Origin: a virus
DNA: 46,486 nucleotides
Reading direction: 5' to 3' (one strand)
IMG/VR virus record: IMGVR_UViG_3300017565_000009
Coordinates: 1-46,486 of that record
Shown here: piece by piece, positions 1,185 through 44,761 of the stretch
Numbering within the stretch: position 1 is the first letter of the stretch
How the letters are laid out: each line of letters begins with the position of its first letter
Notes under the pieces: model-generated
Seen by the model: the letters and a program-made list of their open reading frames with translations, nothing else
Database searches by the model: none
What the model was told of the DNA's origin: nothing
Program-made: the position numbers and the translations under genes

Positions 1185-1213
1185 TTGACGGGGCCGTCAA
1201 TTCGAGGGTAAGT
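1185..1213 (+). promoter_or_regulatory. Palindrome S1 (TTGACGGGGCCGTCAA, 1185-1200) overlapping a putative early promoter
   Basis: TTGACG as -35, then TAAGTT or GTAAGT 17-18 nt downstream. An adjacent 8-bp inverted repeat pairs CAATTCGA (1198-1205) with TCGAATTG (1221-1228). Confidence 0.45.
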
Positions 1214-1241
1214 TGAACCATCGAATTGAGAGGACGCCCAG

Positions 1242-1427
1242 ATGACCAACGCCGAAGCGCAATTCTTTCGCCACCACGGTCGCATCCGCGCCCACGTTAA
1301 AGGCCGCTGGTTCGTGTTTTCCGACGTCAAGGGTGGCTGGAGCAAACGCAAGCCGGCCTACCACGGCCCCATGCCGGACCAAGTCCCCGTGGCGGCAAAT
1401 CCGAGCCGCTGGGGGTTGCCGTCGTGA
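1242..1427 (+). CDS. Hypothetical small early protein (61 aa)
   Basis: ORF preceded by a GAGAGGA RBS. Its stop overlaps the next start (GTGA). Confidence 0.6.
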   Translation: MTNAEAQFFRHHGRIRAHVKGRWFVFSDVKGGWSKRKPAYHGPMPDQVPVAANPSRWGLPS

Positions 1428-1657
1428 CACCCAATTTTTCGGGAGTTTTCTTTACCGCCTTGGGAGAAGTTTTCCACCGCATTCCCTTCCGGACTGTATC
1501 GGCAGGAGGGATGGCCGTGGCGATGGATCACACGTGGCCGGTTCGTGGTGAGGAGCGCTGGACGATGATGGTCATTTACGACCACCGGGGCGAAGAGCCC
1601 GTCGCCGTGTGCCGCCGCTCTCGCACCCGTGGCGATTGGCAGAACATCAGGGATTGA
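1424..1657 (+). CDS. Hypothetical small early protein. The start is uncertain: GTG 1424, or ATG 1511 after AGGAGG.
   Basis: ORF with GTGA coupling to the upstream gene. There is an alternative internal ATG with a strong RBS. Confidence 0.45.
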   Translation: MTPNFSGVFFTALGEVFHRIPFRTVSAGGMAVAMDHTWPVRGEERWTMMVIYDHRGEEPVAVCRRSRTRGDWQNIRD

Positions 1658-1661
1658 GACC

Positions 1662-1847
1662 ATGTACGCAGTCAGCAAATTCACCCTCCGCTACGTCTAC
1701 CTGCGCCACGCGGGCAACTGGTGGCGGCTCCCCAACGAACCGGGCGGATGGGAGCGCCGGCGTCGCATGCGGAACCTGCCGGCGGACGCCAGCAACCTCG
1801 GCGCCTTGGCTCCGGCTACGGCCCGCATTCTGGGCGCGCCGTCATGA
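1662..1847 (+). CDS. Hypothetical small early protein (61 aa)
   Basis: ATG 1662 follows the upstream stop by 4 nt. The stop overlaps the next start (ATGA). Confidence 0.55.
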   Translation: MYAVSKFTLRYVYLRHAGNWWRLPNEPGGWERRRRMRNLPADASNLGALAPATARILGAPS

Positions 1848-2074
1848 GCTGGAGAGATGTGCAACGGCGGTTCTGGCCCGCGCCGCGCGCCGAGGCGCCT
1901 CTCATCACCTACCGCTACCCCAGCGCCTACGGGGGCTGGATCACCATTGGGGCCCGGGATTACCGGGAAGCGTTGCGTGAAGCAAACCGCTCGCTGTCCT
2001 ATCCCAACGCCCAAAAGGAACATCTGGAGATTTGGAATGCCGACCATGGAAAATGGGAGCCCTGCGAGGGGTGA
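1844..2074 (+). CDS. Hypothetical small early protein (76 aa)
   Basis: ATGA overlap with the upstream gene, in an ORF in the coding-strand series. Confidence 0.55.
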   Translation: MSWRDVQRRFWPAPRAEAPLITYRYPSAYGGWITIGARDYREALREANRSLSYPNAQKEHLEIWNADHGKWEPCEG

Positions 2075-2585
2075 GGTTTACTGGCACATCGCCACCGGAG
2101 CCGTAAATTCGGCGGTTTGGGATGGGGACAAAGTCGACCTACAGCGCCAGGAAGCCGGCAATGTTTTCTGGTCGCCCCGGGAGGCCCGCGCCCATCTGGA
2201 CGGCGTGCCGTATATCGGCCCGGGCGATCCCATCCCGACTTACGAGCGCGCGAAGCAATTGCATCAGATGATGCGGCTGGTGGATTTCAAAGGTTGCGAT
2301 GGGGGGTGGCATCGGGCCCGGCGTATTGGCGTGGGGATTGAGGACCGGGAATTTCGCGTCGCCCCAGTGGTCGAGGCGCATCTGGAATTGCCGGAACCGA
2401 TGCGACGCGCGCCAGCCATCGGGGCGGACGTCTGGTTTATCGCTCGCGGCGGCCGCGTAAAATGGGACGGGAGCGAGTGGGCCTTCGCGCAACTTCGCGC
2501 AGGTCTGGTCCACGCCTCCCAAGAGGGTTACCTCGCCACCCTCGCCGCCATCGGTTCCGCACTTGCTTTCACCTCGGAGGGTTGA
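2037..2585 (+). CDS. Hypothetical protein with two copies of a WDG...L..G...A repeat domain (182 aa)
   Basis: GGAG RBS 9 nt before ATG 2037. The internal duplication is VYWHI..VWDGDKVDL..AGNVFWSPREARAHL and VWFIA..VKWDGSEWAFAQLRAGLVHASQEGYLATL. Confidence 0.6.
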   Translation: MPTMENGSPARGEVYWHIATGAVNSAVWDGDKVDLQRQEAGNVFWSPREARAHLDGVPYIGPGDPIPTYERAKQLHQMMRLVDFKGCDGGWHRARRIGVGIEDREFRVAPVVEAHLELPEPMRRAPAIGADVWFIARGGRVKWDGSEWAFAQLRAGLVHASQEGYLATLAAIGSALAFTSEG

Positions 2586-2949: not shown

Positions 2950-3567
2950 ATGATGACAACAACCCTCGCACAACGATTGCTGGTTGAGGATGATTTGCGG
3001 AAGCGCGCCGGGCGTCTGGTCTACATCCCATGCGACTCCAGTCAGGAGAACGCCAACAAGCGCGGCGCGCTTTGCTGGTGGGGGCGCCGGCGGGGGCTTC
3101 AGTTTGACGAGATCGCCAACATCCTGCAGTGCAGCGAGTCGACGGCGCACCGGCAGTTCCATCGCTTCAACAAGGTGGCCGCGCCAGACGCCTCGCCGGC
3201 CGAAGCGCTCAGGGCATATGAGAAGTTCCTCGCGGCGGGGGTGCGGGATCGGGTGGCCCGGCGTGCGGACAAGAAAGACGAGGATTTCGCCGTGAAATCT
3301 GGAAGCCTTCGGGCCCTTGCGGAAGATGTGGCCGGGATGGTCCCCGATGTCCCGGCGCGGCGCGCGGCGCTCTACTATTGGGCCAACTACCGTATGGGGA
3401 TGTCGCAAGCCGAGGTGGCTCGCGTGTTCGAGCGCAGCCCCACGGATGTCAGCCGGCACGTCCTGGAGGTGCGCGATCGTATCCGCGCCGGATTGGTCAA
3501 GGTCATGCCGGCCGGCGCGCCGGCCTACGTCGTCGCGGATCTTGCCGAACAGATGCGGCCATCGTGA
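2950..3567 (+). CDS. DNA-binding protein with two tandem sigma-70 region-4-like (ECF sigma4-like) HTH domains
   Basis: GLQFDEIANILQCSESTAHRQFHRFNK and GMSQAEVARVFERSPTDVSRHVLEVRDRIRAGL both follow the G-L-S-x-x-E-I-A-x-x-L-x-x-S-x-x-T-V pattern of sigma region 4.2. Confidence 0.6.
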   Translation: MMTTTLAQRLLVEDDLRKRAGRLVYIPCDSSQENANKRGALCWWGRRRGLQFDEIANILQCSESTAHRQFHRFNKVAAPDASPAEALRAYEKFLAAGVRDRVARRADKKDEDFAVKSGSLRALAEDVAGMVPDVPARRAALYYWANYRMGMSQAEVARVFERSPTDVSRHVLEVRDRIRAGLVKVMPAGAPAYVVADLAEQMRPS

Positions 3568-4709
3568 TTGACTTTGCCAGTGTGTGCAGCGGGATTGAGG
3601 CGGCCAGCGTGGCGTGGCATCCGTTGGGGTGGCGCGCTGCGTGGCTATCCGAGATTGACCGCAAGGCATCGGGGCTACTCGCGCACCATTACCCCAACAC
3701 CCCCAACTATGGCGACATGACCACGCTGGCGCCTCGCATCCGCGCCGGGGAGATCGCCGCACCCCCGCTCCTGGTTGGCGGCACGCCCTGCCAGAGCTAT
3801 TCCATCGCCGGCGCCCGGCAAGGGCTGGCCGACCCGCGCGGAGTGCTGACGATGCATTACGTCGACATTCTCAACGCGCTGGATGAGCGGCGCGCGGCGG
3901 CCGGAGATGGGCCGGCGCTTTGTCTGTGGGAGAACGTCCCGGGAGTCCTCAATGACAAAACCAACGCCTTCGGAAACTTCCTCGCAGCACTGGCCGGCGC
4001 GGGGCGCGCATATGACCCTCCAGACGGACGACGCTGGTCCGTCGCTGGTTGTGTGTTTGGACCCCGCCGCGTTGTCGCGTGGCGGGTTCTCGACGCCCAA
4101 TATTTCGGCTTGGCCCAACGACGCAAGCGTGTGTTCGTTGTGGCAAGTGCTCGACCCGGGCCCGATCCCCGAGAAATACTTTTTGAGCGCGAAGGCGTGC
4201 GCAGGGATTTTGCGCCGAGCCGAGAACCGTGGCAAGAAGTTGCCGGAACTATTACGGCAAGCGCTGGAAGAAGGAACGGTATCGGGAGCGATTTTGGCGG
4301 AAACCTTATCGCTTTCGGCGGCGGACGGACCGGTGGACCAATTGACGTCGCTGCCTGCCTGACGGCGCGGGGCCAACGGATAGATTTTGAAGTCGAGACG
4401 TTTGCCGTGTCGGTAGCGCTCCGGGGCCGCGACGGCGGCGCCACAGCGGAGCTTGGTGACGAGGTGGCCGGATGCTTGCGGGCGTCAACCGGGGGCGGGG
4501 ACAAACCGCATGTGCTGGCCGCCGCGCGCGTCCGTCGCCTCACCCCCACCGAATGCGAGCGCCTTCAGGGCTTTCCGGTGGGTTACACGGATGCGCCACG
4601 CGGCAACCGGCAGGCGGCTGACGGCACGCGCTACAAAGAGCTGGGCAACAGCAAGGCCGTCCCCGTGGTGCGGTGGATTGGCGAAAGGATTCAAAAATGC
4701 CTGACGTAA
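3564..4709 (+). CDS. DNA (cytosine-5)-methyltransferase
   Basis: C5-MTase motifs appear in order: CSGIE (I), GTPCQSYS (IV), ENVPG (VI), QRRKRVFVV (VIII), TPTECERLQGFPVGYT and GNSKAVPVV (X). The GTG start overlaps the upstream stop (GTGA). Confidence 0.9.
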   Translation: MIDFASVCSGIEAASVAWHPLGWRAAWLSEIDRKASGLLAHHYPNTPNYGDMTTLAPRIRAGEIAAPPLLVGGTPCQSYSIAGARQGLADPRGVLTMHYVDILNALDERRAAAGDGPALCLWENVPGVLNDKTNAFGNFLAALAGAGRAYDPPDGRRWSVAGCVFGPRRVVAWRVLDAQYFGLAQRRKRVFVVASARPGPDPREILFEREGVRRDFAPSREPWQEVAGTITASAGRRNGIGSDFGGNLIAFGGGRTGGPIDVAACLTARGQRIDFEVETFAVSVALRGRDGGATAELGDEVAGCLRASTGGGDKPHVLAAARVRRLTPTECERLQGFPVGYTDAPRGNRQAADGTRYKELGNSKAVPVVRWIGERIQKCLT

Positions 4710-5629
4710 CATTGTTGCATGGATGCAGCCTGGAGCTGTTGCGCATGTGGCCATCCAACAGCGTGGACAGCGTCGTGACGGACCCGCCATATGCGCTGGT
4801 GTCGATCGTCAAACGGTTCGGTGGGGAGGGCGCGGCGCCGGCAAAAGGAGATGTATACGCCCGGGCCTCGGCGGGCTTCATGGGCCAGCAGTGGGACACG
4901 GGCGAAGTAGCGTTCGCTGTCGAATTTTGGTCCGAGGTGATGCGGGTGCTCAAGCCGGGTGGCCACGTGTTGGCGTTTTCCGGGAGCCGCACATATCACC
5001 GGCTCGCCGTCGCTATTGAGGACGCGGGCTTTGAGATCCGAGACCAGATCATGTGGCTGTACGGGAGCGGATTCCCGAAGTCGCATGATGTGAGCAAGGG
5101 GATTGACAAGGCGGCGGGGGTAGAACGGGACGTAGTTGGGACTGTTCGTGCTGGTATTGGACGCGTTAGCAGAAACGGCGGTGAGCTTGTCGGTGGCGTT
5201 TGTGACGAGGGGGCCAAGCGGGTTGCGGTAGCCACCCCTGCAACCGACGCCGCCAAACAATGGGAAGGTTGGGGAACTGCGCTGAAACCGGCCCATGAGC
5301 CAATCGTCATGGCCCGCAAACCTCTTGTCGGCACGGTCGCCGCCAATGTGCTGGCGCACGGGACGGGGGCAATTAACGTGGACGGGTGTCGGGTGGGGGA
5401 TGAGCCGATGCAGGCTACCGCCAGCAACGGCGTCCTGATCTCGGAAAATGGAAGCATGGCCGGCGGCAACTATGGCAGAGTTGCCGCCGGCACAAAAACC
5501 GGTCGCTGGCCCGCCAACATCATCCACGACGGCAGCGACGAGGTTGTGGCGGCGTTTCCGAACAGTAAGTCTGGAGTGGAGAGTGCCCCCCGTGGCACGG
5601 GGGGGGATATGGTCTGGCGTAAGCAATAG
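4697..5629 (+). CDS. Beta-class amino DNA methyltransferase (N6-adenine or N4-cytosine), N-terminal fragment. It ends 7 codons after a G8 tract.
   Basis: VVTDPPY catalytic motif near the N-terminus. AAGGA RBS before ATG 4697. A premature stop follows the homopolymer. Confidence 0.8.
   Translation: MPDVTLLHGCSLELLRMWPSNSVDSVVTDPPYALVSIVKRFGGEGAAPAKGDVYARASAGFMGQQWDTGEVAFAVEFWSEVMRVLKPGGHVLAFSGSRTYHRLAVAIEDAGFEIRDQIMWLYGSGFPKSHDVSKGIDKAAGVERDVVGTVRAGIGRVSRNGGELVGGVCDEGAKRVAVATPATDAAKQWEGWGTALKPAHEPIVMARKPLVGTVAANVLAHGTGAINVDGCRVGDEPMQATASNGVLISENGSMAGGNYGRVAAGTKTGRWPANIIHDGSDEVVAAFPNSKSGVESAPRGTGGDMVWRKQ
5599..5606 (+). repeat. G8 homopolymer at the frameshift point of the methyltransferase gene
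   Basis: Upstream of the tract the coding frame is that of 4697. Downstream it is the +1 frame. Seven Gs would give an intact 409-aa ORF. Confidence 0.9.
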
Positions 5630-5927
5630 CCCATGTGGACCTCAGTACGGCGACTCCGGATCCGCCGCCCGCTTCTTCTATTGCGCCAAGCCAGGCAAGG
5701 CGGAGCGTGGCGAGGGCAACAACCACCCCACCGTCAAGCCCCTCAAGCTGATGGCCTATCTGTGCCGGCTGGTGACGCCGCCCGGGGGACTCATCCTCGA
5801 CCCGTTCGCCGGATCCGGGACGACAGGAATTGCCGCCCGCGACGCCGGCTTTCGCGCCCTGCTGATGGAACGTGAAGATGCGTATGTGAAAATTATCCGC
5901 CAGCGCTTGACGGCTTCGTCAACTTAA
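5607..5927 (+). CDS. Same methyltransferase, C-terminal fragment (AdoMet-binding domain) in the +1 frame
   Basis: GDSGSAARFFYCAK, HPTVKPLKLMAYL and LDPFAGSGTTG (FxGxG) are the hallmark C-terminal motifs of beta-class MTases. Confidence 0.8.
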   Translation: MWSGVSNSPCGPQYGDSGSAARFFYCAKPGKAERGEGNNHPTVKPLKLMAYLCRLVTPPGGLILDPFAGSGTTGIAARDAGFRALLMEREDAYVKIIRQRLTASST

Positions 5928-5935
5928 AATATTAA
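5907..5935 (+). promoter_or_regulatory. Palindrome S2 (TTGACGGCTTCGTCAA, 5907-5922) that is part of a strong sigma70-like promoter
   Basis: TTGACG, a 17-nt spacer, then TATTAA (5930-5935). An RBS (GGAGGA) and ATG 5960 lie downstream. Confidence 0.6.
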
Positions 5936-5959: not shown

Positions 5960-6367
5960 ATGACTGAAACGCAAGAGTTGTTCAACGCGCGAGAGATGCT
6001 GGACGCTGACGACGCATGGCAAGAGCTTTGCGAAAAGGACGACCGCACGTCTCCTGATGAATACCCCAACCACGCGCTGATCACCCGTGACGAATTGGCG
6101 GCTTACGTGCGCGCCCCCACCTGCCCACCCGGCCACATCATGATCGGTGATCGCGCCGTGCCGGAGCCGATGCGGGAAGCGCCGGAGGTTGGCGCGCATG
6201 TCTACCTTGTCGGTCCGGGCGATCGAGATCTGTGCAGCATTATTCGGTGGGACGGCTCGCGGTTCTTCGCGGAGCTGCTAGATCGCGGCCTCATCCACTC
6301 CACCGAAGCCAACGCCCGCGCTCACGCAAAGGCAATCATCGCTATGTCTGCTGGGGAGAGCGTGTGA
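5960..6367 (+). CDS. Hypothetical protein (135 aa). It has an acidic N-terminus and a C-terminal WDG...L..G...A domain related to the 2037-2585 product.
   Basis: GGAGGA RBS. IIRWDGSRFFAELLDRGLIHSTEANARAHAKAI resembles the repeats in 2037-2585. Confidence 0.65.
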   Translation: MTETQELFNAREMLDADDAWQELCEKDDRTSPDEYPNHALITRDELAAYVRAPTCPPGHIMIGDRAVPEPMREAPEVGAHVYLVGPGDRDLCSIIRWDGSRFFAELLDRGLIHSTEANARAHAKAIIAMSAGESV

Positions 6368-7128
6368 TGCAGCCAGCCCCGGGAGACGTGATCGCCGTCT
6401 GGTTTAGCAATGGCGCTGCCAGCGCGATCGCATGGCAGGAAACCCTTCGCAGGTATGGCGACATGTGCGACGTGCGCGCCATCAACAACCCTGTTGCGGA
6501 GGAAGACGAGGACAACCTACGTTTTGGCGCTGACGTGTCGAAATGGCTGGGTCGCCCGCTGATTGAGTGCGTCAACCCTAAATTCCCAACCGCTTCAGCC
6601 GTCGATGTGTGGGCCAAGCGCGGCGCTATGAGCTTCATCCATGGTGCGCCATGCACGGTGCATCTGAAAAAAGAGGCCAGGCAGCATTACGAGCGTCAGA
6701 ACAAAGTCGACTGGCATGTTTTGGGCTTCACCGTTGAAGAAAAGCGGCGGCATGACCGATTTGTACTAACAGAGCGGAGCAACGTCTTGCCCGTGCTCAT
6801 CGAAGCCGGACTGTCAAAACAAGACTGCTTTGACCGGATACTCGCCGCCGGCATCGCCCCGCCAGCCGTGTACGCCAAGGGCTTCCCGAACGCTAACTGC
6901 ATCGGGTGTGTTAAGGCAACGAGCCCGACGTACTGGAACCTGGTGCGGGAGAAATACCCCGAAGTTTTCGCAGCCAGGGCCAAGCAGGGGCGCGAACTGG
7001 GCGGCGGAAAACTGGTTCGATACCAGGGAAAGCGCATCTTTCTGGATGAACTGCCTGCCGACGCCAAGGGCCGCAACCTCAAGAACATGACCTTTGAATG
7101 CGGCATCTTTTGCGAGGAACGTCCATGA
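6367..7128 (+). CDS. PAPS-reductase-fold (PP-loop, adenine nucleotide alpha-hydrolase) protein
   Basis: The N-terminal VWFSNGAAS sits in the PP-loop position (degenerate SGGxDS). The C-terminal ECGIFC resembles the CysH ECGLH motif. There is also a CIGC pair. TGATG overlap with the upstream gene. Confidence 0.6.
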   Translation: MQPAPGDVIAVWFSNGAASAIAWQETLRRYGDMCDVRAINNPVAEEDEDNLRFGADVSKWLGRPLIECVNPKFPTASAVDVWAKRGAMSFIHGAPCTVHLKKEARQHYERQNKVDWHVLGFTVEEKRRHDRFVLTERSNVLPVLIEAGLSKQDCFDRILAAGIAPPAVYAKGFPNANCIGCVKATSPTYWNLVREKYPEVFAARAKQGRELGGGKLVRYQGKRIFLDELPADAKGRNLKNMTFECGIFCEERP

Positions 7129-7358
7129 CTGACCGCACAGAGCGCGAGGGGCCGACATATGCCGATGGTCGATACCTTGTCCTGCCGGACGGGTCACGAC
7201 TTGGCCCTTTCTCCAGTCATTGGGCAGCATGCGCCGCGATGGTCCGCAGGAGCGATCCGACGTTTGTGTCACTCGGCGGCGACATGCCGAGCGATCTGGC
7301 GATAGAGGCCGGCCGCCCCACCGAAGCCCTTGCGGGTAAGGGAGGTGGGAATGTCTGA
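7125..7358 (+). CDS. Hypothetical protein (77 aa)
   Basis: ATGA coupling to the upstream gene. Confidence 0.55.
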   Translation: MTDRTEREGPTYADGRYLVLPDGSRLGPFSSHWAACAAMVRRSDPTFVSLGGDMPSDLAIEAGRPTEALAGKGGGNV

Positions 7359-7641
7359 CAAACTGACCATGGCGCAGCGCTGGGCGCTGCAAGCAATCGC
7401 AGACGGCCACGGCTGGTCCCCTGCGTCCCTCGGCCAAAAGATGATGGAGCGCCACGGAGCCGTCCCGGCTTGGCGTGGCACGATGCAATACAAGGCCCAG
7501 GGCTACGGCCGGATGGGCGGGGCCATGGCCGCGAGGTTGGAGCGCATGGGCCTCGTCAGTCTCTGGCGCGACGCCCGTGGCCGGAAATGGGCCGAGCCTA
7601 CAGCCGCCGGCCGCGCCGCCCTCAAGGAGGATCGCCCATGA
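7351..7641 (+). CDS. Small winged-helix-like DNA-binding protein (96 aa)
   Basis: GGAGGTGGGA RBS. The pattern MAARLERMGLVSL...AEPTAAGRAAL is typical of MarR-like wHTH proteins. Confidence 0.5.
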   Translation: MSDKLTMAQRWALQAIADGHGWSPASLGQKMMERHGAVPAWRGTMQYKAQGYGRMGGAMAARLERMGLVSLWRDARGRKWAEPTAAGRAALKEDRP

Positions 7642-7991
7642 GTAAGATCAACGATGATGGTCGCACATGGCCCTGCTCCATCAATGACAAGGGCTACGTC
7701 CAACCATGTTGGGCAATGGCGGAAAGCTTGGAGGACAATTTCGGGCGCGGAACGCGGGCGCAAGGGCTGAAGCTGGTTTCGCTGGTCAACACCAGAACGC
7801 ACGAAGGCGCTGGCTCCATGATCATTTGCAAGAGCGGGGGCCATTCAAAGCGCGGCATGACCATGAATTGGTGTCCGTTCTGCGGCGGATGGATCCGCAA
7901 GAACAAGACACAAGCCGAGTTTATTGCCGAGGTCGAAGCTGCGAAGGCCGAAGACGCTGCCCGCACCCAGGGAGGCGACGCCGATGGGTGA
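7638..7991 (+). CDS. Hypothetical protein with a CPFCGG zinc-ribbon-like element (117 aa)
   Basis: ATGA coupling to the upstream gene. ORF in series. Confidence 0.55.
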   Translation: MSKINDDGRTWPCSINDKGYVQPCWAMAESLEDNFGRGTRAQGLKLVSLVNTRTHEGAGSMIICKSGGHSKRGMTMNWCPFCGGWIRKNKTQAEFIAEVEAAKAEDAARTQGGDADG

Positions 7992-8271
7992 CAAGCTGAC
8001 AGTGGGTCGCGCCGTGTTCGGGCCGACAGCTGTTTCATCCGGAATGCCGCCAGACCCGCTCGGGGACAACACGGCTATGCAACTGCATTCCGCGTGGAAG
8101 CAATTGTGCATCGACAACCCTGCGCGCATTGCCGCGCTTGAGGCCGAGATCGCGAAACTTCAGGCGTCTCTGGAGAAGATCGCCTGCCGGCACGTCACCG
8201 TTGAACCCTTGTGGTGGCAATTGGAAGCCCGCGCCGCCCTCGCCAAATCGACAGGAGGGGATGATGGGTGA
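7984..8271 (+). CDS. Hypothetical coiled-coil protein (95 aa) ending ...AKSTGGDDG
   Basis: Overlaps the upstream stop. Its 3' end contains the 28-nt junction repeat. Confidence 0.55.
   Translation: MGDKLTVGRAVFGPTAVSSGMPPDPLGDNTAMQLHSAWKQLCIDNPARIAALEAEIAKLQASLEKIACRHVTVEPLWWQLEARAALAKSTGGDDG
8240..8267 (+). repeat. Junction repeat copy 1 (TCGCCAAATCGACAGGAGGGGATGATGG)
   Basis: 27 of 28 nt are identical to 8538-8565. It carries the RBS and ATG of the next gene and encodes the K(S/A)TGGDDG tail of the previous one. Confidence 0.9.
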
Positions 8272-8575
8272 TGCGCAGATGAAAATTCTGGATGCGGCGG
8301 GGATGCTGATGAGGGCCACGGGACAGGTAGAAAAAGCGGAGGCGTTTGAGAGTATCAAGTGCCGCATCGCCGCCCTCACCGCCGAACGTGACGCCCTCCG
8401 CGCCAAGTTCGAGGAAGCTCGGGGGGCAATACAAGCCGCGATTGACTGCGGAATGGTGCCTACCACGTCCGCAAGTGAGGGCGGCGCGTCCCGATACGCA
8501 GAGCAAGTCATCGTGGCTGACAGGCTTCGGCAGGTCATCGCCAAAGCGACAGGAGGGGATGATGGCCAGCAGTAA
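8261..8575 (+). CDS. Hypothetical coiled-coil protein (104 aa) ending ...AKATGGDDGQQ
   Basis: GGAGGGG RBS inside the junction repeat. The gene is bracketed by the two repeat copies. Confidence 0.6.
   Translation: MMGDAQMKILDAAGMLMRATGQVEKAEAFESIKCRIAALTAERDALRAKFEEARGAIQAAIDCGMVPTTSASEGGASRYAEQVIVADRLRQVIAKATGGDDGQQ
8538..8565 (+). repeat. Junction repeat copy 2
   Basis: See 8240-8267. Confidence 0.9.
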
Positions 8576-8648
8576 CGCATCGCTGCACTACGCCCTCGCC
8601 ATTGAATTGTGGGTGGCGATTATCTGGATAGCCCGGATCGCCGCCTAA
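8559..8648 (+). CDS. Possible 29-aa hydrophobic peptide (MMASSNASLHYALAIELWVAIIWIARIAA)
   Basis: It has the same RBS-ATG context as the preceding gene and one predicted TM-like segment. It is very short. Confidence 0.35.
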   Translation: MMASSNASLHYALAIELWVAIIWIARIAA

Positions 8649-8679
8649 CAACTGAAAAATCAACCCTGGAGTTTGTTTG

Positions 8680-9315
8680 ATGAACGCCAAATTCAAGCTG
8701 ACCAGCGAAACCAAGAACTGGTTCGGCAGAACTCTGTTTCGTATCGAGGCCCTGATTTCGTTTGGGTCAGTCGAGGCCGGCGACAAGGGCGGTTTTGTCG
8801 AGAAGGAAGAGAATATCTCTCCGGACGGCAACGCCTGGGTCTCCGGCGACGCCCGGGTCTTCGGCGACGCCCGGGTCTCCGGCAACGCCCTGGTCTCCGG
8901 CGACGCCCAGGTCTTCGGCAACGCCCGGGTCTCCGTCAACGCCCGGGTCTCCGGCGACACCCGGGTCTACGGCGACGCCCGGGTCTCCGGCGACGCCCGG
9001 GTCTACGGCAACGCCTGGGTCTCCGGCAACGCCCGGGTCTACGGCGACGCCCGGGTCTCCGGCAACGCCCTGGTCGTAAAGCCCATCACCACGGCCACCC
9101 GCTCTGACGGCTACACTTTCGCGCTGTTGCCCCACAAGGATGGATCGTTCCGTATCACGGCAGGATGCAGGCATTTCACGTTCAGTGAGGCTGACGCCCA
9201 CTGGACGTGGCGAGACGGGACGCCTCTGGGCGACGAGACCCGGGCCATTCTCAAGTTTTTCCGGACAGCGGCAGCGATCCCCGGCATCGCTCACGTTGCG
9301 GAGGACGCAGCATGA
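8680..9315 (+). CDS. Hexapeptide-repeat (left-handed beta-helix-like) protein with a C-terminal AGCRHFT...HW domain
   Basis: 14 consecutive [GV][ND]AxV[SFY] hexads. GGAG RBS 8 nt before ATG 8680. Confidence 0.8.
8827..9078 (+). repeat. Tandem array of 18 bp x 14 (consensus GGCGACGCCCGGGTCTCC) that encodes the hexapeptide repeats
   Basis: Units counted directly. The array keeps all six frames open, which explains the overlapping track ORFs here. Confidence 0.95.
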
Positions 9316-10121
9316 CCACCACCCCAGAAACCCGCGTCGTGCCGGTTGAACCAGACGACAACATGATCGACGCTGCTAAGCGCGCCTGGTCGCAGAAGTG
9401 CGCGGACGTGGAGGCCAATTACCCGACTGAGCATCCTGATGATGGTGGTGGGCCTATGGGATATGCGATCCGAGCAGCAATCGCCGCCGCCCCTGCCGCG
9501 CCTGCGCCGGAGCCGGAGCCGGAGCCGGTGGCGTACCAGACGCTGACGGCCGGCAAGTGGGTGGAGTGCTCAGAATTTGTCGCCAAGGGATGGGGTGACA
9601 CCCTTGCTGATGGGTGTCGGGCGCTCTACGCCGCCCCGCTAGCCCCCGTTGCCGCCAGTGCGGTGGAGCCGCCGTATGTCACGCACCGGCCCTTGATCCG
9701 CAATGCCATTGCGTTGCTACGCATGCGCGGTGGCAGCACGGACGCCATGCGTGTGGTGCGCGATCTGGAGGCGTTGCTGCAAGGGATGCCTACGCCGGCC
9801 GATCTAGTGTCTCCAAAATGGCTGAGCATTGCCGCCAGTGCGGACATGCGGGACGCCTACGTTGGCGCGCGCGAGGACTTGGCGATCTGGAAGAAACGGG
9901 CGCTTGAGGCAGAAGCGAAGTTGCGGGCAAACCCCGTTGCCGCCAGTGCGGTGGATGCGATCCAGTTTATCGAGAAGCGCCGCGACGACTACGTGCGCGA
10001 CCACGGTATCTATGACCCATCGACAGGCGTGACGGAATTTCCGGGCAACGGCGACGAATACGTTGGCGAGCTTGAGGAAATCATTGACGGCTTGCGCGCA
10101 GCGGCGGAGGGAAACCGATGA
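9312..10121 (+). CDS. Hypothetical protein (269 aa) with a Pro/Ala/Glu linker and repeated PVAASAV motifs
   Basis: ATGA coupling to the upstream gene. Long ORF in series. Confidence 0.7.
   Translation: MTTTPETRVVPVEPDDNMIDAAKRAWSQKCADVEANYPTEHPDDGGGPMGYAIRAAIAAAPAAPAPEPEPEPVAYQTLTAGKWVECSEFVAKGWGDTLADGCRALYAAPLAPVAASAVEPPYVTHRPLIRNAIALLRMRGGSTDAMRVVRDLEALLQGMPTPADLVSPKWLSIAASADMRDAYVGAREDLAIWKKRALEAEAKLRANPVAASAVDAIQFIEKRRDDYVRDHGIYDPSTGVTEFPGNGDEYVGELEEIIDGLRAAAEGNR
9644..9955 (+). repeat. Dispersed direct repeats inside the CDS. A 24-nt repeat, CCCCGTTGCCGCCAGTGCGGTGGA, lies at 9644-9667 and 9932-9955. A 15-nt core, TTGCCGCCAGTGCGG, also lies at 9829-9843.
   Basis: Exact matches read from the sequence. 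Confidence 0.9.
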
Positions 10122-10615
10122 CCCCTAATGAGGCAAAGGCGGCGGTAAAGATGCTCCGGGCCGTCTGGGCGCATCAGGAGGAATCCCGGCGGGGCAAGTG
10201 GCGCAAGCGCTGGATGAACCAGGCCGAGTTGATTGGCGGCTGGTCCAAAGACCCCCGAACGCACGTTGGATGCGTATTTGTCAAAGACAACCATCGGCTC
10301 ATGGACGGATACAACGGCCTGCCGCGCGGCGTCTGCGATGACCCGCCGGTGAGGTGGGGGCCGGAGGAAAAGTACGACTGGATGTGCCATGCGGAAGCCA
10401 GCGGCGTGGCCAAGGCGGCCCGACATGGCGTCAGTCTCATGGGGTCGACGTGCTTTGTCACGCACAAGCCCTGCTCGCAGTGCATGTCCCTGATGCTCAA
10501 TGCGGGCGTCGCGGCTGTCATTTACGGGCCGGGCAAAACCAGCATGCCGGAACAGAAATTCCGGATAACGACAATCATGTGCGAGGAAGCCGGGGTGCGG
10601 CTGGAGGCTTACTGA
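10118..10615 (+). CDS. dCMP (deoxycytidylate) deaminase
   Basis: Zinc-binding motifs CHAE and PCSQC with the spacing of the cytidine/dCMP deaminase family. Confidence 0.85.
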   Translation: MTPNEAKAAVKMLRAVWAHQEESRRGKWRKRWMNQAELIGGWSKDPRTHVGCVFVKDNHRLMDGYNGLPRGVCDDPPVRWGPEEKYDWMCHAEASGVAKAARHGVSLMGSTCFVTHKPCSQCMSLMLNAGVAAVIYGPGKTSMPEQKFRITTIMCEEAGVRLEAY

Positions 10616-11151
10616 TGAGCTGGATTCAAACTTACTCGGGCGCCGTCTTCGATCCGCTGGAGCCCATGCGGCACGAAATGCCCCTGCGGGATATCGCCCA
10701 CTCGCTCTCCATGCAGTGCCGCTACAACGGCCATTGCCTGAAATTCTACAGCGTGGCCGAGCACTGCATACTCCTGGTCGCGGCCCTGAGCCGGGATGGC
10801 GTCAAGGATCGTGACATCCTGCGGTGGGCGCTCATGCACGACGCCCCCGAAAGTTGGCTTTGTGACCTGCCGCGCCCGCTCAAGCCTCATGTGTTGGGGT
10901 TTGCCGACCTTGAAGAGGCGGCGGAACGGGCCGTGGCCGAGCGTTTCGACCTCTCCCCCGCCATCCCCGATATCGTCAAGGAATATGACGCCCGGGTCCT
11001 GCACGATGAGAAAGCCCAGAACATGGCGCCCGGACCGGAATGGGGTATCCCCGGCGAGCCGCTGGGGGTCAAACTGAAATTCTGGTCGCCGGAGGATGCG
11101 AAAATTCGCTTCATCACCACCGCGCGCATGCTGGGCCTGCGTGTCACATGA
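10615..11151 (+). CDS. HD-domain phosphohydrolase (YfbR-like 5'-deoxynucleotidase type)
   Basis: SVAEHC ... MHDAPE ... D motifs of the HD superfamily. TGATG overlap with the deaminase gene. Confidence 0.75.
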   Translation: MSWIQTYSGAVFDPLEPMRHEMPLRDIAHSLSMQCRYNGHCLKFYSVAEHCILLVAALSRDGVKDRDILRWALMHDAPESWLCDLPRPLKPHVLGFADLEEAAERAVAERFDLSPAIPDIVKEYDARVLHDEKAQNMAPGPEWGIPGEPLGVKLKFWSPEDAKIRFITTARMLGLRVT

Positions 11152-11543
11152 CGCCGGCCGATCGCATTGAAATGCTGCAGGAGGAAAACCGCCAGTTGCG
11201 TGAGGCGCTGGCCCCTACCCTCCCCATACTCCCCCGGGTGCGGCTGACGCCCTGCGAGAGTGTTCTGGTCTCGCTGATGTTACATCAGGACGTGGCCAGC
11301 TATGAGCGCATCCGGCTGTCCGTCAAACCCCTGTTTCCGCACGATTATGACATGAGTGAGTCGGGGGTGCGGGTGCTGGCCTACAAGACCCGGATCAAGT
11401 TGCGAATGCTGGGGGTCGAGATGCAGACGCTCTACAAGGTGGGGCACTACCTGCTCCCGGAAGACAAGGATATCCTGCGTGGCCAACTGGACAAAAGCCG
11501 ACGAGCGGCGCCGGCAGAAGGCGCTGGAGCGGGGGGCGCTTAA
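11148..11543 (+). CDS. OmpR/PhoB-type winged-helix DNA-binding protein with an N-terminal coiled coil
   Basis: LTPCESVLVSLML...SESGVRVLAYKTRIKLRMLGVEMQTLYKVGHYL parallels the LTxxE...V.VHI..LR.KL....I.TV.G.GY pattern. Confidence 0.55.
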   Translation: MTPADRIEMLQEENRQLREALAPTLPILPRVRLTPCESVLVSLMLHQDVASYERIRLSVKPLFPHDYDMSESGVRVLAYKTRIKLRMLGVEMQTLYKVGHYLLPEDKDILRGQLDKSRRAAPAEGAGAGGA

Positions 11544-11811
11544 CCGGCGCCTTCTGAACGAATGGCAACTGGCGGAACGCATCTGGATTTCCTGGGCTTC
11601 CCGCAATGCCAAGCCGCCTGGCCGGCGCTCCCGGCTGGTGCGGGCCCGGGTTGGAGATGTTCCCGTGCGCATCAATTTGCGCCGCGCTCTCCCCCAACCC
11701 CATCTGGATGTAGAAATTGACCCCGCGTCTGAGCTAGGACGCGATTTACTGGAGTGGTTGAAGTCCAGAACCGCGCCGGGCCAGTTGGAGCGCGAGTTGT
11801 TGACCTACTGA
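11479..11811 (+). CDS. Hypothetical basic protein. The start is uncertain (GTG 11479 after AAGGA). It overlaps the upstream gene by 65 nt.
   Basis: Open frame with coding-like composition and no in-frame ATG. Confidence 0.4.
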   Translation: MANWTKADERRRQKALERGALNRRLLNEWQLAERIWISWASRNAKPPGRRSRLVRARVGDVPVRINLRRALPQPHLDVEIDPASELGRDLLEWLKSRTAPGQLERELLTY

Positions 11812-11829
11812 GCAAAGAGAGGATGCGAA

Positions 11830-18113: not shown

Positions 18114-18125
18114 GGGAGGAACGGA

Positions 18126-34376: not shown

Positions 34377-35023
34377 GCGCAATTCAGAACATTGACCTTA
34401 GCGTCAATTTGCTTCGGGCCATCCTTTGGCAATATGACGAAGCCGAGGCGCTGCAATCGCTCATCAGCCAGAAGAACGATTGGTTGGACGAGCACAATTC
34501 GGGGTTTTGGTCCTGGTGGTATCGCGCGGTTTTCAATGTCGACACGGCCGAAGATTTCGGGCTGGCCGTATGGTCCATCATTCTGGACATTCCCCTGGGT
34601 TATGACGTCCCGGCCTCGGGTGACCGCCCAGTATTCGGGTTCGATCCCTATTACCAGAATTTCACCCACGGAAACTTCGGACGCGATCAGGCGGGATTCG
34701 TCGGATTGTCACGGGAGCAAAAGCGCCTCGTCATCAAACTCCGGTATTTCCAGCTCATCAGTCGGGGGACCTTGCCGGACGTCAACTATTTCCTGTCCCA
34801 GATGTTCGGAGACGCCTATGCGCTCGACAATCTGGACATGACTTTCACCGTGATTTTCCGCACCCGTCCGAGCGCCGCCATTTGGTTCGTCCTGGAAAAC
34901 TTCGATTTGCTCCCACGCCCGGCGGGGGTAGAAGTCAAGTTGCTGGTGCGCCCCGGTGACTATTTTGGGTTCGACCCGTACTATCAGAATTTTACAAACG
35001 GCGTGTTCGCCCCGAGGGTTTGA
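34373..35023 (+). CDS. Baseplate/tail protein (DUF2612-like, Mu gp48 / P2 gpI position)
   Basis: N-terminal LLRAILWQYDEAEALQSLI pattern. An internal duplicated FGFDPYYQNFT motif. Confidence 0.65.
   Translation: MSAIQNIDLSVNLLRAILWQYDEAEALQSLISQKNDWLDEHNSGFWSWWYRAVFNVDTAEDFGLAVWSIILDIPLGYDVPASGDRPVFGFDPYYQNFTHGNFGRDQAGFVGLSREQKRLVIKLRYFQLISRGTLPDVNYFLSQMFGDAYALDNLDMTFTVIFRTRPSAAIWFVLENFDLLPRPAGVEVKLLVRPGDYFGFDPYYQNFTNGVFAPRV
34392..34407. promoter_or_regulatory. Palindrome S6, TTGACCTTAGCGTCAA
   Basis: Perfect arms. It lies 16 nt after the baseplate J stop. Confidence 0.5.
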
Positions 35024-40728: not shown

Positions 40729-41873
40729 CAGTCAAAAGCCCTTCGTGCGTCAGATTCGGAGACGAGTTTAACAACCGCCTCGCCGGGCGGCCTATGAGAG
40801 ATAGCCGAAATGACGGCTTCGTCAACTCCCATTTGCCGGGCCTGCGTGGGGGTAACGGTTCCTGGCTTGGCCAGGTTTTTGCCGGCGCCCAAGCCGATGG
40901 CAATGACCATCTCGTCGGGAACAGACCATTTGGCGTGCGTCGTCCGGTTTTCCCGGATGACCCCGGGGACCCGGTCGCCGCGCGTGACGCGCGCCAGCAG
41001 ATCACCCTCAAGACCAGCAATGGCGTGTTTGAGGGTTTGCGCCGCATCGCGCCATTGTTTGAGCACCAGGTGCGCGACGTCCGATTCCACGGCGCCGGCA
41101 TGAAGCATCCCGGCCACCGCGACCGCCCCGTAAGCGGACTCCCGGAACACTGAGCACGCATGGTTCGCGCAGTCCCGACACCAGGGGCCGGCCTTGGCTT
41201 CCGCGAGATGCGGGGGCTTTTCCGCCTGAAGGCGCGCCAGAGCTTCCGCCGCGCGAGTCTTCAGGATGGCCGCCCGCTCTTTCAGATAACCCGCCGGGAC
41301 TTCCCAGGTCCGCGCGACGCCACGCGGATGAAAAGCACGAGGCTGGACAATGGTCACGGAGGCCGACCAGACGTCCATGTTAAACCCCAGCGTGACCATC
41401 ACGGAAATCAGGTAAATCACGCACTGTTCGTTCAAATATTCTTCCACAATGCGGAATCCATATTTGTAATCGAACAACAATACCTTGTTTTCCTGACGGT
41501 CCACGACGACTATGTCCGGCGTACCCCAAACATCGGGGTTAATCGTCATGCCGGAAAACGCCCGTTGCTCCACGAGAACCGTGTAACGACTGGGATCGTC
41601 CAGGTAGTGCCGCACCAGTTCAACAAGCTTGTCGCCATGATACGCCATTTCCTGCGTGATCGGGGTCCCGGCAGAGTCCGCGTCGTCCACGGCGGGGATG
41701 CAGTCCGTCAGGCATTGCGACACATACCAATGCGCCGCCGTGCCTTCTGGCGCCGAGTCCTCATCCCCCGACGAAAGTCGGAGGACGCCGAAGTCTTTGA
41801 TCATGCGGAGCGCCATGGCGCAATTGGCCCACAACTCCGCAGATGAGGGAGGGAGTAGGGCGTGCTCCGTCAT
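40728..41873 (-). CDS. PD-(D/E)xK Cas4-like exonuclease (DUF2800-like)
   Basis: N-terminal LLPPSSAELWANC pattern. C-terminal Cys cluster CRDCANHAC. Synteny with the SSB gene. Confidence 0.7.
   Translation of the reverse strand: MTEHALLPPSSAELWANCAMALRMIKDFGVLRLSSGDEDSAPEGTAAHWYVSQCLTDCIPAVDDADSAGTPITQEMAYHGDKLVELVRHYLDDPSRYTVLVEQRAFSGMTINPDVWGTPDIVVVDRQENKVLLFDYKYGFRIVEEYLNEQCVIYLISVMVTLGFNMDVWSASVTIVQPRAFHPRGVARTWEVPAGYLKERAAILKTRAAEALARLQAEKPPHLAEAKAGPWCRDCANHACSVFRESAYGAVAVAGMLHAGAVESDVAHLVLKQWRDAAQTLKHAIAGLEGDLLARVTRGDRVPGVIRENRTTHAKWSVPDEMVIAIGLGAGKNLAKPGTVTPTQARQMGVDEAVISAISHRPPGEAVVKLVSESDARRAFD
40810..40825. promoter_or_regulatory. Palindrome S7, ATGACGGCTTCGTCAA (one mismatch; 15 of 16 nt identical to S2)
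   Basis: On the - strand it reads TTGACGAAGCCGTCAT, 82 nt upstream of the SSB start. Confidence 0.45.
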
Positions 41874-42538: not shown

Positions 42539-42554
42539 CGGGCTTTTCTCCTGG

Positions 42555-42595
42555 TTGACGGGGGTATGTCTGGCACGATATGACGGAGCCGTCAA
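42555..42595 (+). promoter_or_regulatory. Divergent control region: TTGACG -35 (42555-42560), ATATGA -10-like, and palindrome S5 ATGACGGAGCCGTCAA (42580-42595)
   Basis: 60-bp gap between divergent replication operons. S5 overlaps the -10/+1 region. GTTGACGG (42554-42561) and CCGTCAAC (42589-42596) are also inverted. Confidence 0.5.
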
Positions 42596-42598
42596 CTT

Positions 42599-44272
42599 GT
42601 GAGGTGCGCTTTGTTTGAGCTGTTCGACCATCAGGCGACGATCCTGGCCAAGACCCGAAAAGCGTGGGACGAAGGCCATCAGAACGTGCTGTTGCGGGCG
42701 GACACGGGCATCGGAAAGACCGTCATGCTGTCGGACGAAGTCCGGCGCCGTGGCAATCTCCCCTCCTGCACTTTCGCCCACCGGCAAGAGCTGGTTGGCC
42801 AGCTTTCTCTGTCCCTGGCGCGGCAGGGCGTGCAGCATAACGTCATCGCCCCTGAAAAAGTAGTGCGCGCCATCAGCGCCAACCACGTCCGCAAGGTCGG
42901 CCGCAGCTTTTTTGTCCCCAATGCGCCTGCCGCCGTGGCCGGCGTGGATACCCTTATCCGACGACCCGTGACCGCGTGGGACCGGAGCGTCAGGCTCTGG
43001 ACGGCTGACGAAGCGCATCACGTTCTGCGCGCCAACAAATGGGGCACCGCGACCGAGCGCTTCACGCACCCGCAATGTCAGGGTTTGGGGCCGACCGCCA
43101 CGCCCCAGCGTGCCGATGGCCACGGGCTTGGGCGTCACGCTTCGGGCCTCTTTGACGTGATGGTTGAGGGGCCGCCCATGCGTTGGGCGATCGACAACGG
43201 CTATCTGACGCCTTATCGCATCGTCCTCCCCGAGACGGACCTTGCCAAAATTGACATCGGAGACGTGTCCGCCGGCGGGGACTGGTCGTCCCAAAAACTG
43301 CGTGACGCGTCGGTAAAATCCCGCATCGTCGGGAACGTGGTCGAGGAATACCGCAAGCGCGCCGCCGGCATGCTGACGGTGGTGTTCGCCACGGACGTCG
43401 ACACGGCCGAAGAGATGGCCGCCAATTTCCGCGCCGCCGGCGTGCCCGCCTCCAGCATCACCGGCGAAATGCACGACTCGGCGCGCTGGCAGGTCATTGA
43501 AGATTTCGAGGCCCGGCGCCTCCAGGTGCTGGTGGCCGTGGACATCATTTCCGAAGGCTTCGATCTGCCCGCCGTCGAGTGTGCCATTTTCTGCCGACCC
43601 ACCATGTCCCTCGCGCTTTACATGCAACAGTTTGGCCGCGCCCTGCGCGTCATGGCCGGCAAGCTGGAAGCGCTCATCATCGATATGGCCGGCAACTTCA
43701 AAAATTTCGGGCCGCCGGATCGCCCGCGCCAGTGGACGCTGGACGGCGCCGACCGCAAGAGTGGAACGCGCAATTACGTCGAGCCGACCTATACTTGCTC
43801 CAGCGACTCCTGCGCCCAGCCTTACGAAAAATGGCGCACGGAATGCCCGCATTGCGGCGCGCTCCCGCCGCCGCCGGCGGACAGGTCCTCCCCGATGGTC
43901 GTGGCCGGCGATCTGGTAGAACTTGACCCGGCCACCCTCGCGGCGATGCTGGGCGACGTGGGGCGCGCCGAAATGTCGGCCGCTGAGTTTGCGCAAGACC
44001 TGCACGCACGCCGCGTCCCGCTCATCGGCCACAGTCGCCAGCTATCGCATCACCTCGCCAAACAGGCAGCCCGCGAACCCTTGCGGGCTGCCATGGAGTT
44101 GTGGGGCGGCGCGCGGCTGGCGGACGGCCTCAACGATCGCGAGATGCAGAAGCTGTTCTTCCACCGTTTCGGCGTGGATGTGATCACGGCGCGCACGCTC
44201 CCCGTGGCCGAAACCGAATCCCTGACCATCAAAATCTATGAGGAATTTGCCAATGCAGACGCAGCTCTTTGA
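42599..44272 (+). CDS. SF2 DEAD/DEAH-box DNA helicase
   Basis: Motif I is ADTGIGKT and motif II is TADEAHH. The helicase-C region is VLVAVDIISEGFDLP...QQFGRALR. The start is approximate (GTG 42599). Confidence 0.85.
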   Translation: MRCALFELFDHQATILAKTRKAWDEGHQNVLLRADTGIGKTVMLSDEVRRRGNLPSCTFAHRQELVGQLSLSLARQGVQHNVIAPEKVVRAISANHVRKVGRSFFVPNAPAAVAGVDTLIRRPVTAWDRSVRLWTADEAHHVLRANKWGTATERFTHPQCQGLGPTATPQRADGHGLGRHASGLFDVMVEGPPMRWAIDNGYLTPYRIVLPETDLAKIDIGDVSAGGDWSSQKLRDASVKSRIVGNVVEEYRKRAAGMLTVVFATDVDTAEEMAANFRAAGVPASSITGEMHDSARWQVIEDFEARRLQVLVAVDIISEGFDLPAVECAIFCRPTMSLALYMQQFGRALRVMAGKLEALIIDMAGNFKNFGPPDRPRQWTLDGADRKSGTRNYVEPTYTCSSDSCAQPYEKWRTECPHCGALPPPPADRSSPMVVAGDLVELDPATLAAMLGDVGRAEMSAAEFAQDLHARRVPLIGHSRQLSHHLAKQAAREPLRAAMELWGGARLADGLNDREMQKLFFHRFGVDVITARTLPVAETESLTIKIYEEFANADAAL

Positions 44273-44744
44273 CTGGGCTCGCCGCTGGGGCGTGCCGGAA
44301 CAGGCCATCCCGGAGCTGGCCACGCTGCTGGGCACGAGCGATCTGCCGCCTATTGCCCCTCCCCCGCCGCCCAGCGCGCGCGAGGGGTGGGTGCAAGGCC
44401 AGGTGCGTATGCGCGCACCCTACGTGGGCATGCACTTGTGGCGCAACAACGTCGGCGCCCTCAAAGATGAACGCGGCGTGCCGGTGCGCTACGGGCTGGC
44501 CAATGACAGCAAGCAACTCAACGACCGGATCAAGAGCGGGGACCTCATCGGCATCCGCCGCGTGACCATCACCCCCGCCATGGTCGGGCACGTCATCGGA
44601 CAGTTTGTCAGCCGGGAATGCAAAGCGCCGGGGTGGCGCTACACCGGCACTCCGCGCGAGAAAGCCCAACTGGCCTGGGCGTCACTGGTCCAACTCAACG
44701 GGGGAGACGCCGGCTTTATAGCCAACCCCGACGAGTTGCGCTAA
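44253..44744 (+). CDS. VRR-NUC domain nuclease
   Basis: GDLIGI...GQFVSRECKAPG...EKAQLAW...NGGDAGF follows the D...E.K VRR-NUC layout. GAGGA RBS. Confidence 0.7.
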   Translation: MQTQLFDWARRWGVPEQAIPELATLLGTSDLPPIAPPPPPSAREGWVQGQVRMRAPYVGMHLWRNNVGALKDERGVPVRYGLANDSKQLNDRIKSGDLIGIRRVTITPAMVGHVIGQFVSRECKAPGWRYTGTPREKAQLAWASLVQLNGGDAGFIANPDELR

Positions 44745-44745
44745 G

Positions 44746-44761
44746 TTGACCGCCACGTCAG
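44746..44761. promoter_or_regulatory. Palindrome S8, TTGACCGCCACGTCAG (one mismatch), directly upstream of the TetR-like gene
   Basis: It lies in the 30-bp gap between the VRR-NUC stop and the RBS of 44775. Confidence 0.45.

Follow-up and report, generated by a model that had tools for sequence, protein, structure and literature searches.

What does a 16-bp palindrome do when it recurs at gene borders across a whole phage genome, and which protein reads it? The question is raised by the virus record IMGVR_UViG_3300017565_000009 of IMG/VR, analysed here over its full 46,486 nucleotides (the window), in which an earlier note had described sites with arms TTGAC and GTCAA as a phage-specific operator and promoter regulon. 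The window was compared with related phages, and the comparison points to the product of the gene at 44775-45104, which is predicted to be a one-domain TetR-like helix-turn-helix (HTH) protein and is termed mini-TetR below. The sites are probably operators for a dimer of this protein, most of them built into sigma-70-type promoters, with the repressor controlling its own gene; this reading was drawn from sequence comparison.

The palindrome was confirmed as a real feature of the window. A search for perfect TTGAC-N6-GTCAA arms returned exactly the five copies listed in the earlier note, at 1185, 5907, 15489, 17689 and 34392, and its estimate of far fewer than one such copy by chance was borne out, with a mean of 0.02 in dinucleotide-preserving shuffles and none of 100 shuffles reaching five. 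When up to one mismatch was allowed, 10 copies were observed vs 0.85 expected. This set includes S5 (42580), S7 (40810) and S8 (44746), which had been named as one-mismatch copies, as well as two intragenic copies at 3104 and 29615. The flank CGTCAACT that these three were said to share is absent from S8, which reads CGTCAGGA. TTGAC-6 ranked first among all 5-mer gapped palindromes in a de novo scan of the window, and the same scan placed it at the top in two relatives (L089 and L092).

A weight matrix trained on the sites of the relatives alone was then applied to the window, and recovered all eight sites, S1 to S8, as its top-scoring matches. Seven of them reach at least 17.2 bits, compared with a best score of 16.8 bits among 50 simulated genomes, and S8 scores 13.5 bits; S3 stands at 19.1 bits and S6 at 17.2 bits. 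The copies at 3104, 29615 and 14757 score about 13 bits each with this family matrix and may be chance matches, which for 3104 and 29615 is the probable explanation because of that low score. The length of 16 bp was upheld, whereas the consensus of the earlier note proved too short, the real form being a 7-2-7 palindrome, TTGACGG-NN-CCGTCAA. Its outermost base varies (A or T at position 1; A, T or G at position 16), so that the consensus is better written TTGACGG-NN-CCGTCA(A/T/G), and G occupies position 6 in 87% and position 7 in 60% of the sites. S5 and S7 fit this form better on the minus strand, as TTGACG...CGTCAT. The eight sites and the elements beside them are as follows.

1152-1167, plus strand: intrinsic-terminator-like hairpin with T-run, closing the primase transcription unit just before S1.
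1185-1200, plus strand: S1, candidate operator and -35, TTGACGGGGCCGTCAA; after the primase-polymerase stop codon and the terminator at 1152-1167.
1209-1214, plus strand: -10-like hexamer TAAGTT of S1, spacer 18; the next gene starts at 1242.
5907-5922, plus strand: S2, candidate operator and -35, TTGACGGCTTCGTCAA; last six codons of a DNA methyltransferase gene.
5930-5935, plus strand: -10-like hexamer TATTAA of S2, spacer 17; the next gene starts at 5960.
15489-15504, no strand assigned: S3, TTGACGGGACGGTCAA; last six codons of TerS, with no usable -10 in either direction.
17689-17704, plus strand: S4, candidate operator and -35, TTGACCGTCCCGTCAA; overlaps the TerL stop codon and is directed into the 700-nt gap between TerL and portal.
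17711-17716, plus strand: -10-like hexamer TATGGT of S4, spacer 16.
34392-34407, no strand assigned: S6, TTGACCTTAGCGTCAA; codons 7-12 of a DUF2612 gene, without a -10, the weakest of the perfect-arm sites.
40810-40825, minus strand: S7, TTGACGAAGCCGTCAT as read on the minus strand; within the 3' end of the exonuclease gene.
40803-40798, minus strand: -10-like hexamer TATCTC of S7; upstream of the genes for a gp2.5-like single-stranded DNA-binding protein (SSB) and DNA polymerase.
42580-42595, no strand assigned: S5, ATGACGGAGCCGTCAA; in the divergent region separating the exonuclease and helicase gene blocks.
44746-44761, plus strand: S8, TTGACCGCCACGTCAG; ends 13 nt before the mini-TetR start codon and adjoins its GAGG ribosome-binding site.
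44775-45104, plus strand: mini-TetR gene, 109 amino acids, with a TetR-type N-terminal HTH and a short conserved tail, VAQGLADRH...APE.

In all perfect sites the left arm is TTGAC(G/C), close to the -35 hexamer TTGACA. The -10-like hexamers placed by the earlier note 16-18 nt downstream of S1, S2 and S4 were found there (TAAGTT at 18, TATTAA at 17, TATGGT at 16), and S7 has one in the same range. Judged by this arrangement, S1, S2 and S4 (plus strand) and S7 (minus strand) resemble promoters whose spacer contains the right arm. S5 is arranged differently: a rightward promoter-like site has its -35, TTGACG, at 42555-42560, and its -10, TATGAC (42579-42584), is overlapped by S5. No -10 was found for S3, S6 or S8. 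S3 may be an orphan or a roadblock-type site, and S8, at 13 nt, is too near the ATG to be the promoter of the mini-TetR gene and is proposed from its position as the autoregulatory site of that gene.

The link to promoters was measured on 95 sites from 15 genomes, counting as a -10 any hexamer that starts with TA, matches TATAAT in at least four of six positions and lies 16-18 nt downstream. Such a hexamer follows 25% of the TTGAC arms of the motif vs 2.8% of 847 TTGAC copies without a right arm (about 9-fold), and the commonest spacer is 17. With a stricter test, TAnnnT, it was present at 22 of 75 sites vs 1-2.4% per orientation in controls. The earlier operator and promoter reading is supported by this enrichment, and is weakened by S3, S6 and S8, which have no usable -10.

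The sites also keep close to the ends of genes, the distance from site centre to called stop codon having a median of 24 nt vs 254 nt for random positions (p = 4e-11), and 38% of the centres lying within 15 nt of a stop codon vs 4% at random. As had been reported, a TAA follows 2 nt after the end of S2 and likewise of S3, and the two reading frames close with L-T-A-S-S-T-stop and L-T-G-R-S-T-stop. The TGA inside the left arm of S4 is the TerL stop codon, in agreement with the overlap claimed for it. S3 was likewise checked to be the exact reverse complement of S4; this identity could be a coincidence, because the inner positions are constrained and the match stops at 16 bp. S6 does begin 16 nt past the baseplate-J stop codon, where the earlier note had put it, but it is not intergenic, since it lies inside the overlapping DUF2612 gene (34373-35023).

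That selection acts on the DNA rather than on the protein had been argued from S2 and S3, where an unrelated methyltransferase and TerS both end in L-T-x-x-S-T-stop, and the exonuclease gene bears this out. The equivalent of S7 occupies the same codon register in six genomes, where it encodes G-[VI]-D-x-x-V-I, and lies 82 nt from the end of the exonuclease gene here and in Vibrio phage CP-T1 and 85 nt from it in Edwardsiella phage MSW-3. The codons GAC (Asp) and GTC (Val) of its arms and the preceding xTT are invariant in all six, whereas synonymous positions of neighbouring conserved residues vary freely, and the downstream Tyr codon TAT provides the -10 of the site. The invariance of synonymous positions in the arms therefore indicates selection on the DNA.

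A search with TerL yielded 80 IMG/VR loci (TerL identity 55-60%), a few of which hold several copies of the palindrome; in four (L004, L017, L010 and L067) one copy immediately follows TerL, in the manner of S4. Close relatives retain the arms and differ in the central NN or the flanks. S8 is unchanged in a 98%-identical relative (L082/L083), its arms are kept in L084 (mini-TetR 75% identical), and S1 in L082 retains both arms and differs in the central NN alone (GG to CC). A single-sequence locus search with mini-TetR gave no match; an alignment-based scan found nine IMG/VR contigs encoding the protein, three of them motif-rich TerL loci already found. All nine have multiple motif copies (5 perfect and 6 near copies in 20 kb of L089), and nearly all have one shortly upstream of the mini-TetR gene.

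Cultured phages carry the motif as well, with 6 perfect copies in CP-T1 (45% G+C), 5 in MSW-3, and 5 perfect plus 9 near copies in vB_KsaM-C1. Across relatives whose proteins are just 35-60% identical the motif is kept in sequence and position, and four landmarks recur. One site precedes the mini-TetR gene (S8 in the window). Another follows the primase gene behind a terminator (S1; 39679 in MSW-3, 20996 in vB_KsaM-C1). The divergent exonuclease/helicase region holds the third (S5; 6537 in CP-T1, 34326 and 34354 in MSW-3, 13967 and 14024 in vB_KsaM-C1), and the fourth is within the 3' end of the exonuclease gene, ahead of the SSB gene (S7). In the cultured relatives sites also head small opposite-strand cassettes set among structural genes. 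The check for conservation in related phages that the earlier note had suggested thus came out in its favour, the motif recurring in every examined relative with a close mini-TetR homologue; its regulon reading is supported, and the restriction to one phage falls, as the motif is family-wide.

To characterise the protein, profile and structure comparisons were used. Among solved TetR regulators, the family profile finds its matches in the N-terminal DNA-binding domain alone (best 5vl9, E = 4e-9), and these PDB matches are restricted to profile positions 5-59. Homologues are about 100 amino acids long, and P0003-P0012 carry Pfam PF00440 (TetR_N). An AlphaFold model of mini-TetR (pLDDT 95.9) has seven short helices, and all its top Foldseek matches are TetR regulators, with low target coverage and a target-normalised TM-score of about 0.3; its structural neighbours include LuxR/HapR/SmcR. 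Full TetR proteins have a C-terminal core of about six helices and a total length of about 190-210 amino acids, and they bind as dimers to palindromic operators of about 15-17 bp, commonly beside their own gene. Because the canonical dimerisation core is missing from mini-TetR, its dimer is an assumption, for which the conserved tail VAQGLADRH...APE is the likely contact. The family comprises at least 1,515 clusters at 50% identity (E <= 1e-10), mostly of about 100 amino acids, and members of about 165-190 amino acids (P0013, P0014, P0017) are natural tandems of an extra N-terminal HTH unit and a complete mini-TetR unit. No characterised member of the family was found.

The motif and the protein occur together. 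The density of perfect sites is 14-18 per 100 kb where the mini-TetR recognition helix is of the type x-G-x-[VI]-[SN]; it is 0.94 per 100 kb in the other TerL relatives (1.07 Mb in all) and zero in 178 kb from four related phages (PD0307, 97.13, B2 and TPWB-08). The recognition helix differs in three of these four, being TPPA[LI][TS] in Oceanospirillum phage PD0307 (L100) and Vibrio phage 97.13 (L103) and SRPRIL in Stenotrophomonas phage B2 (L102). TPWB-08 has no annotated mini-TetR homologue, and its match to the hidden Markov model is marginal (23 residues, E = 3e-10). No replacement operator was found in PD0307, 97.13 or B2; the candidate CTAA-N15-TTAG in PD0307 occurs just once and was rejected. 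L001 was dropped as a control without mini-TetR, as it encodes a divergent homologue; it has two sites of the form TTGACT...GTCAG, and that gene has one of them directly upstream. The earlier note had listed four HTH proteins of the window as candidate binders, and the comparative evidence singles out 44775-45104. No homologue of the others was found in motif-bearing loci. The link between motif and protein is supported and not proven, because the comparisons are few and phylogenetically related.

What the comparison shows is a conserved motif that is linked to promoters and co-occurs with mini-TetR; from this we infer not only binding by this protein but also its dimerisation, repression rather than activation, and the timing of the circuit. 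A mini-TetR dimer would bind the 16-bp palindrome, whose left arm TTGAC(G/C) would serve as the -35 hexamer and whose right arm would lie within the spacer, S5 overlapping a -10 instead. Since bound protein would then sit on the -35 and some of the spacer, or at S5 on the -10, host RNA polymerase would be excluded. The promoters under this control would head early, replication and nucleotide-metabolism units, and in relatives also the small opposite-strand cassettes. On phage entry all operator-bearing promoters would fire; mini-TetR would build up and then damp them together with its own gene, so that early expression would come as a pulse or settle at a feedback-set level. S3, S6 and S8, which lack a -10, would serve as roadblocks or be spare sites for binding. 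For temperate relatives, CP-T1 among them, mini-TetR might be a general lytic repressor.

Several points weigh against this circuit. A clear -10 is present, by strict criteria, in just about a quarter to a third of the sites, and S3, S6 and S8 cannot be promoters as placed. The TetR_N match of the window protein itself is below threshold (E = 0.0099, 16.1 bits vs a cut-off of 24), and the protein is without the canonical ligand-binding and dimerisation core, having about 50 residues in short helices after the HTH. The co-occurrence rests on a modest number of related, non-independent lineages, and any other gene conserved in the clade would correlate similarly with the motif. For most TerL loci 20 kb of contig was examined, and a mini-TetR gene could lie outside that stretch. 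In addition, some TetR-type proteins (LuxR/HapR) also activate transcription.

This last point opens the quite unlikely alternative that mini-TetR binds the sites but activates or licenses transcription, as an anti-silencer or by recruiting polymerase. The structural neighbours LuxR/HapR/SmcR both activate and repress, and the sites precede many gene classes, including cassettes in the late region of CP-T1 and MSW-3. Yet the site covers the -35 and spacer (the -10 in S5), where activators other than those of the MerR type do not bind, and the TTGAC -35 is already near consensus and therefore needs no activator. A MerR-type promoter was rejected, as the spacers here are 16-18 bp vs the 19-20 bp needed. 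About equally improbable is that another factor binds, either a different clade-conserved phage protein or a host TetR-type or dimeric regulator, for example one like RutR. The outer arms are identical to those of the RutR box, the co-occurrence with mini-TetR is correlation only, and the window encodes further HTH proteins, such as 2950-3567. Against this, one motif is shared by phages of widely differing hosts (Vibrio, Edwardsiella, unknown high-GC hosts and that of vB_KsaM-C1, which is unrecorded), and related phages in which the mini-TetR recognition helix differs are without it, two facts that make a host factor unlikely. A site lies upstream of the mini-TetR gene in nearly every genome, the remaining HTH proteins of the window are without homologues in motif-bearing loci, and positions 6-7 are GG where the RutR box has CA.

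The sites might also need no dedicated binding protein. If their arms were back-to-back -35 hexamers of bidirectional promoters, the many sites between divergent genes in CP-T1, MSW-3 and vB_KsaM-C1 would be accounted for, as would some perfect sites with a -10 on both sides. However, the gap is invariably 6 bp, positions 6-7 are G/G (87% and 60%) where the sigma-70 consensus is A, and 48 of the 95 sites have one TTGAC arm (the other being GTCAT or GTCAG) with the inner palindrome retained. Most window sites, moreover, lie between co-directional genes, where leftward transcription would be antisense, and no correlation with the recognition helix of mini-TetR would be predicted; such promoters are accordingly held to be very improbable. 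The faintest prospect is that the palindromes act in RNA, as gene-end hairpins that terminate, process or stabilise transcripts. Clustering at stop codons and possible stems of 5-6 bp speak for it, but the hairpins are weak (-4.5 to -7.6 kcal/mol, z-scores -0.2 to -2.1) and no T-run follows them, the true terminators of the window looking quite unlike the sites. The arms do not co-vary but are invariant in sequence, inner positions are often unpaired, and the common variants ATGAC, GTCAT and GTCAG break pairing without compensation. Intrinsic termination was discarded, as the terminator scan called no site, save for a partial wrong-strand overlap at S2.

The genome that carries these putative operator-promoters is that of a phage with 63% G+C. 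Its ends are identical over 123 bp (1-123 = 46364-46486), so that the assembly is circular or terminally redundant, with a unit length of 46,363 bp, and the primase-polymerase gene spans the junction from about 45115 to 1148 (798 amino acids in L082). Its genes encode the primase-polymerase, two DNA methyltransferases, a PAPS-reductase-like protein, dCMP deaminase, dNMP phosphatase and an Nmad5-domain protein. Also present are an endolysin (minus strand), TerS, TerL, portal, myovirus head and tail genes and a holin. Replication genes on the minus strand (DNA polymerase A, the gp2.5-like SSB, a DUF2800 exonuclease) are followed by a helicase, a nuclease and the 109-residue HTH protein at 44775-45104. 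Among the window genes scanned, which were not all of them, no integrase or classic immunity region was seen, and the window has no Rfam or tRNA matches. No match came from a near-identity DNA search of the phage collection, and at the DNA level no cultured phage is close. For proteins the best matches reach 59% identity with TerL and 47% with DNA polymerase. A scan of genome contigs returned only two short contigs of metagenome-assembled genomes and no host clue.

Some further features were observed along this genome. The second DNA methyltransferase lies in two overlapping open reading frames, 4673-5629 and 5448-5927, which correspond to the N- and C-terminal halves of a single Pfam family (PF01555); the split could reflect a frameshift, programmed recoding or an error in sequencing. 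The module downstream of S2 (5960-12357) holds the PAPS-reductase-like protein, dCMP deaminase, dNMP phosphatase and Nmad5-domain protein, a set that hints at modification of its DNA by the phage. Between TerL and portal, the 700-nt gap (17705-18410) has no convincing open reading frame and no Rfam match and contains two strong intrinsic terminators (18074-18104 and 18349-18375); it could be a small RNA or peptide cassette. In L004, L017 and L026 an insertion of about 5 kb occupies the same place. The palindrome has a degenerate copy, TTGACGGGGCTGTCGG, at 18383-18398, between the second terminator, which it follows directly, and the portal start codon 12 nt further on; the family matrix gives it only 9.4 bits. 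At 14379-14406, before the packaging and structural genes, is a near-consensus sigma-70 promoter-like site (TTGACG, 16 nt, TATGAT) without a palindrome, which could be an operator-free late or constitutive promoter. The protein at 2950-3567 (205 amino acids) has two HTH regions with weak matches to sigma-70 region 4 and, with no homologue in motif-bearing loci, might be a separate, perhaps late, regulator.

A broader set of proposals is, taken jointly, rather unlikely, though less so than any of the alternatives above. It holds that a mini-TetR of about 100 residues is the master governor of a whole group of small myoviruses, CP-T1, MSW-3 and vB_KsaM-C1 among them, its specificity frozen and its action tied to copy number, that it is the sole lysogeny repressor in some members, and that the sites are cassette junctions. 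An operator fused to the -35 would freeze specificity across hosts, from Vibrio to high-GC bacteria, and since about 8-14 binding sites come with each copy of the genome, early transcription could be coupled to copy number through the circuit. Among temperate members without an integrase, mini-TetR could be the only lysogeny repressor, and the shared 16-bp sites at cassette borders might be junctions for exchanging gene cassettes. If the main reading, of operators bound by mini-TetR, is confirmed, one small repressor and one -35-fused operator would provide a simple wiring diagram for widespread, poorly studied myoviruses of about 45 kb, and a large uncharacterised family of one-domain TetR-like proteins would gain its first function. 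The compact repressor and its 16-bp operator-promoter might serve as a part for synthetic biology, and since cultured members exist, the predictions are directly testable.

The literature on phage TetR-like repressors and the motif, of which coverage was incomplete, yielded no description of a mini-TetR/palindrome system, and the known systems resemble it in part. In the cluster A mycobacteriophages, of which L5 is one, stoperators are asymmetric 13-bp sites, oriented with respect to transcription and bound by a monomer of the repressor gp71. As here, many copies of one short site are concentrated in short gaps at stop and start codons, some in promoters and others as would-be roadblocks; unlike stoperators, the sites here are 7-2-7 palindromes, often with a -10 at promoter spacing. 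In the Streptomyces phage phiC31 the repressor (gene c) is said to bind conserved inverted repeats (CIRs) of about 17 bp, which share with the present sites their many intergenic copies throughout the genome, often at early promoters, and the autoregulation of the repressor gene through one of them. The repressor protein of phiC31 is unrelated, however, the repeat sequence is different, and phiC31 is clearly temperate, whereas no integrase or immunity region was seen in the window genes scanned. Because protein and site type differ, the window does not belong to the phiC31 or the L5 system.

The closest operator, compared at the level of the DNA box, is that of the E. coli TetR-family protein RutR, which binds a 16-bp 7-2-7 RutR box, 5'-TTGACCAnnTGGTCAA-3' (PMC2475637). 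The outer arms TTGAC...GTCAA are identical, and RutR also has many sites inside genes. The consensus differs at positions 6-7 (GG here, CA in RutR), and RutR is a full-length, uracil-responsive cellular protein of about 212 amino acids whose sites are not in promoters. A precedent on the protein side comes from Comeau et al. 2012 (PMC3391216), who reported tetR-like genes in phiPLPE, CP-T1 and vB_VchM-138 and treated them as a co-opted cellular regulator; no operator or promoter motif was described there, and the repeats reported are unrelated tandem arrays. These genes belong to the same family and the same phage group as the one studied here, gp14 of CP-T1 being a mini-TetR homologue.

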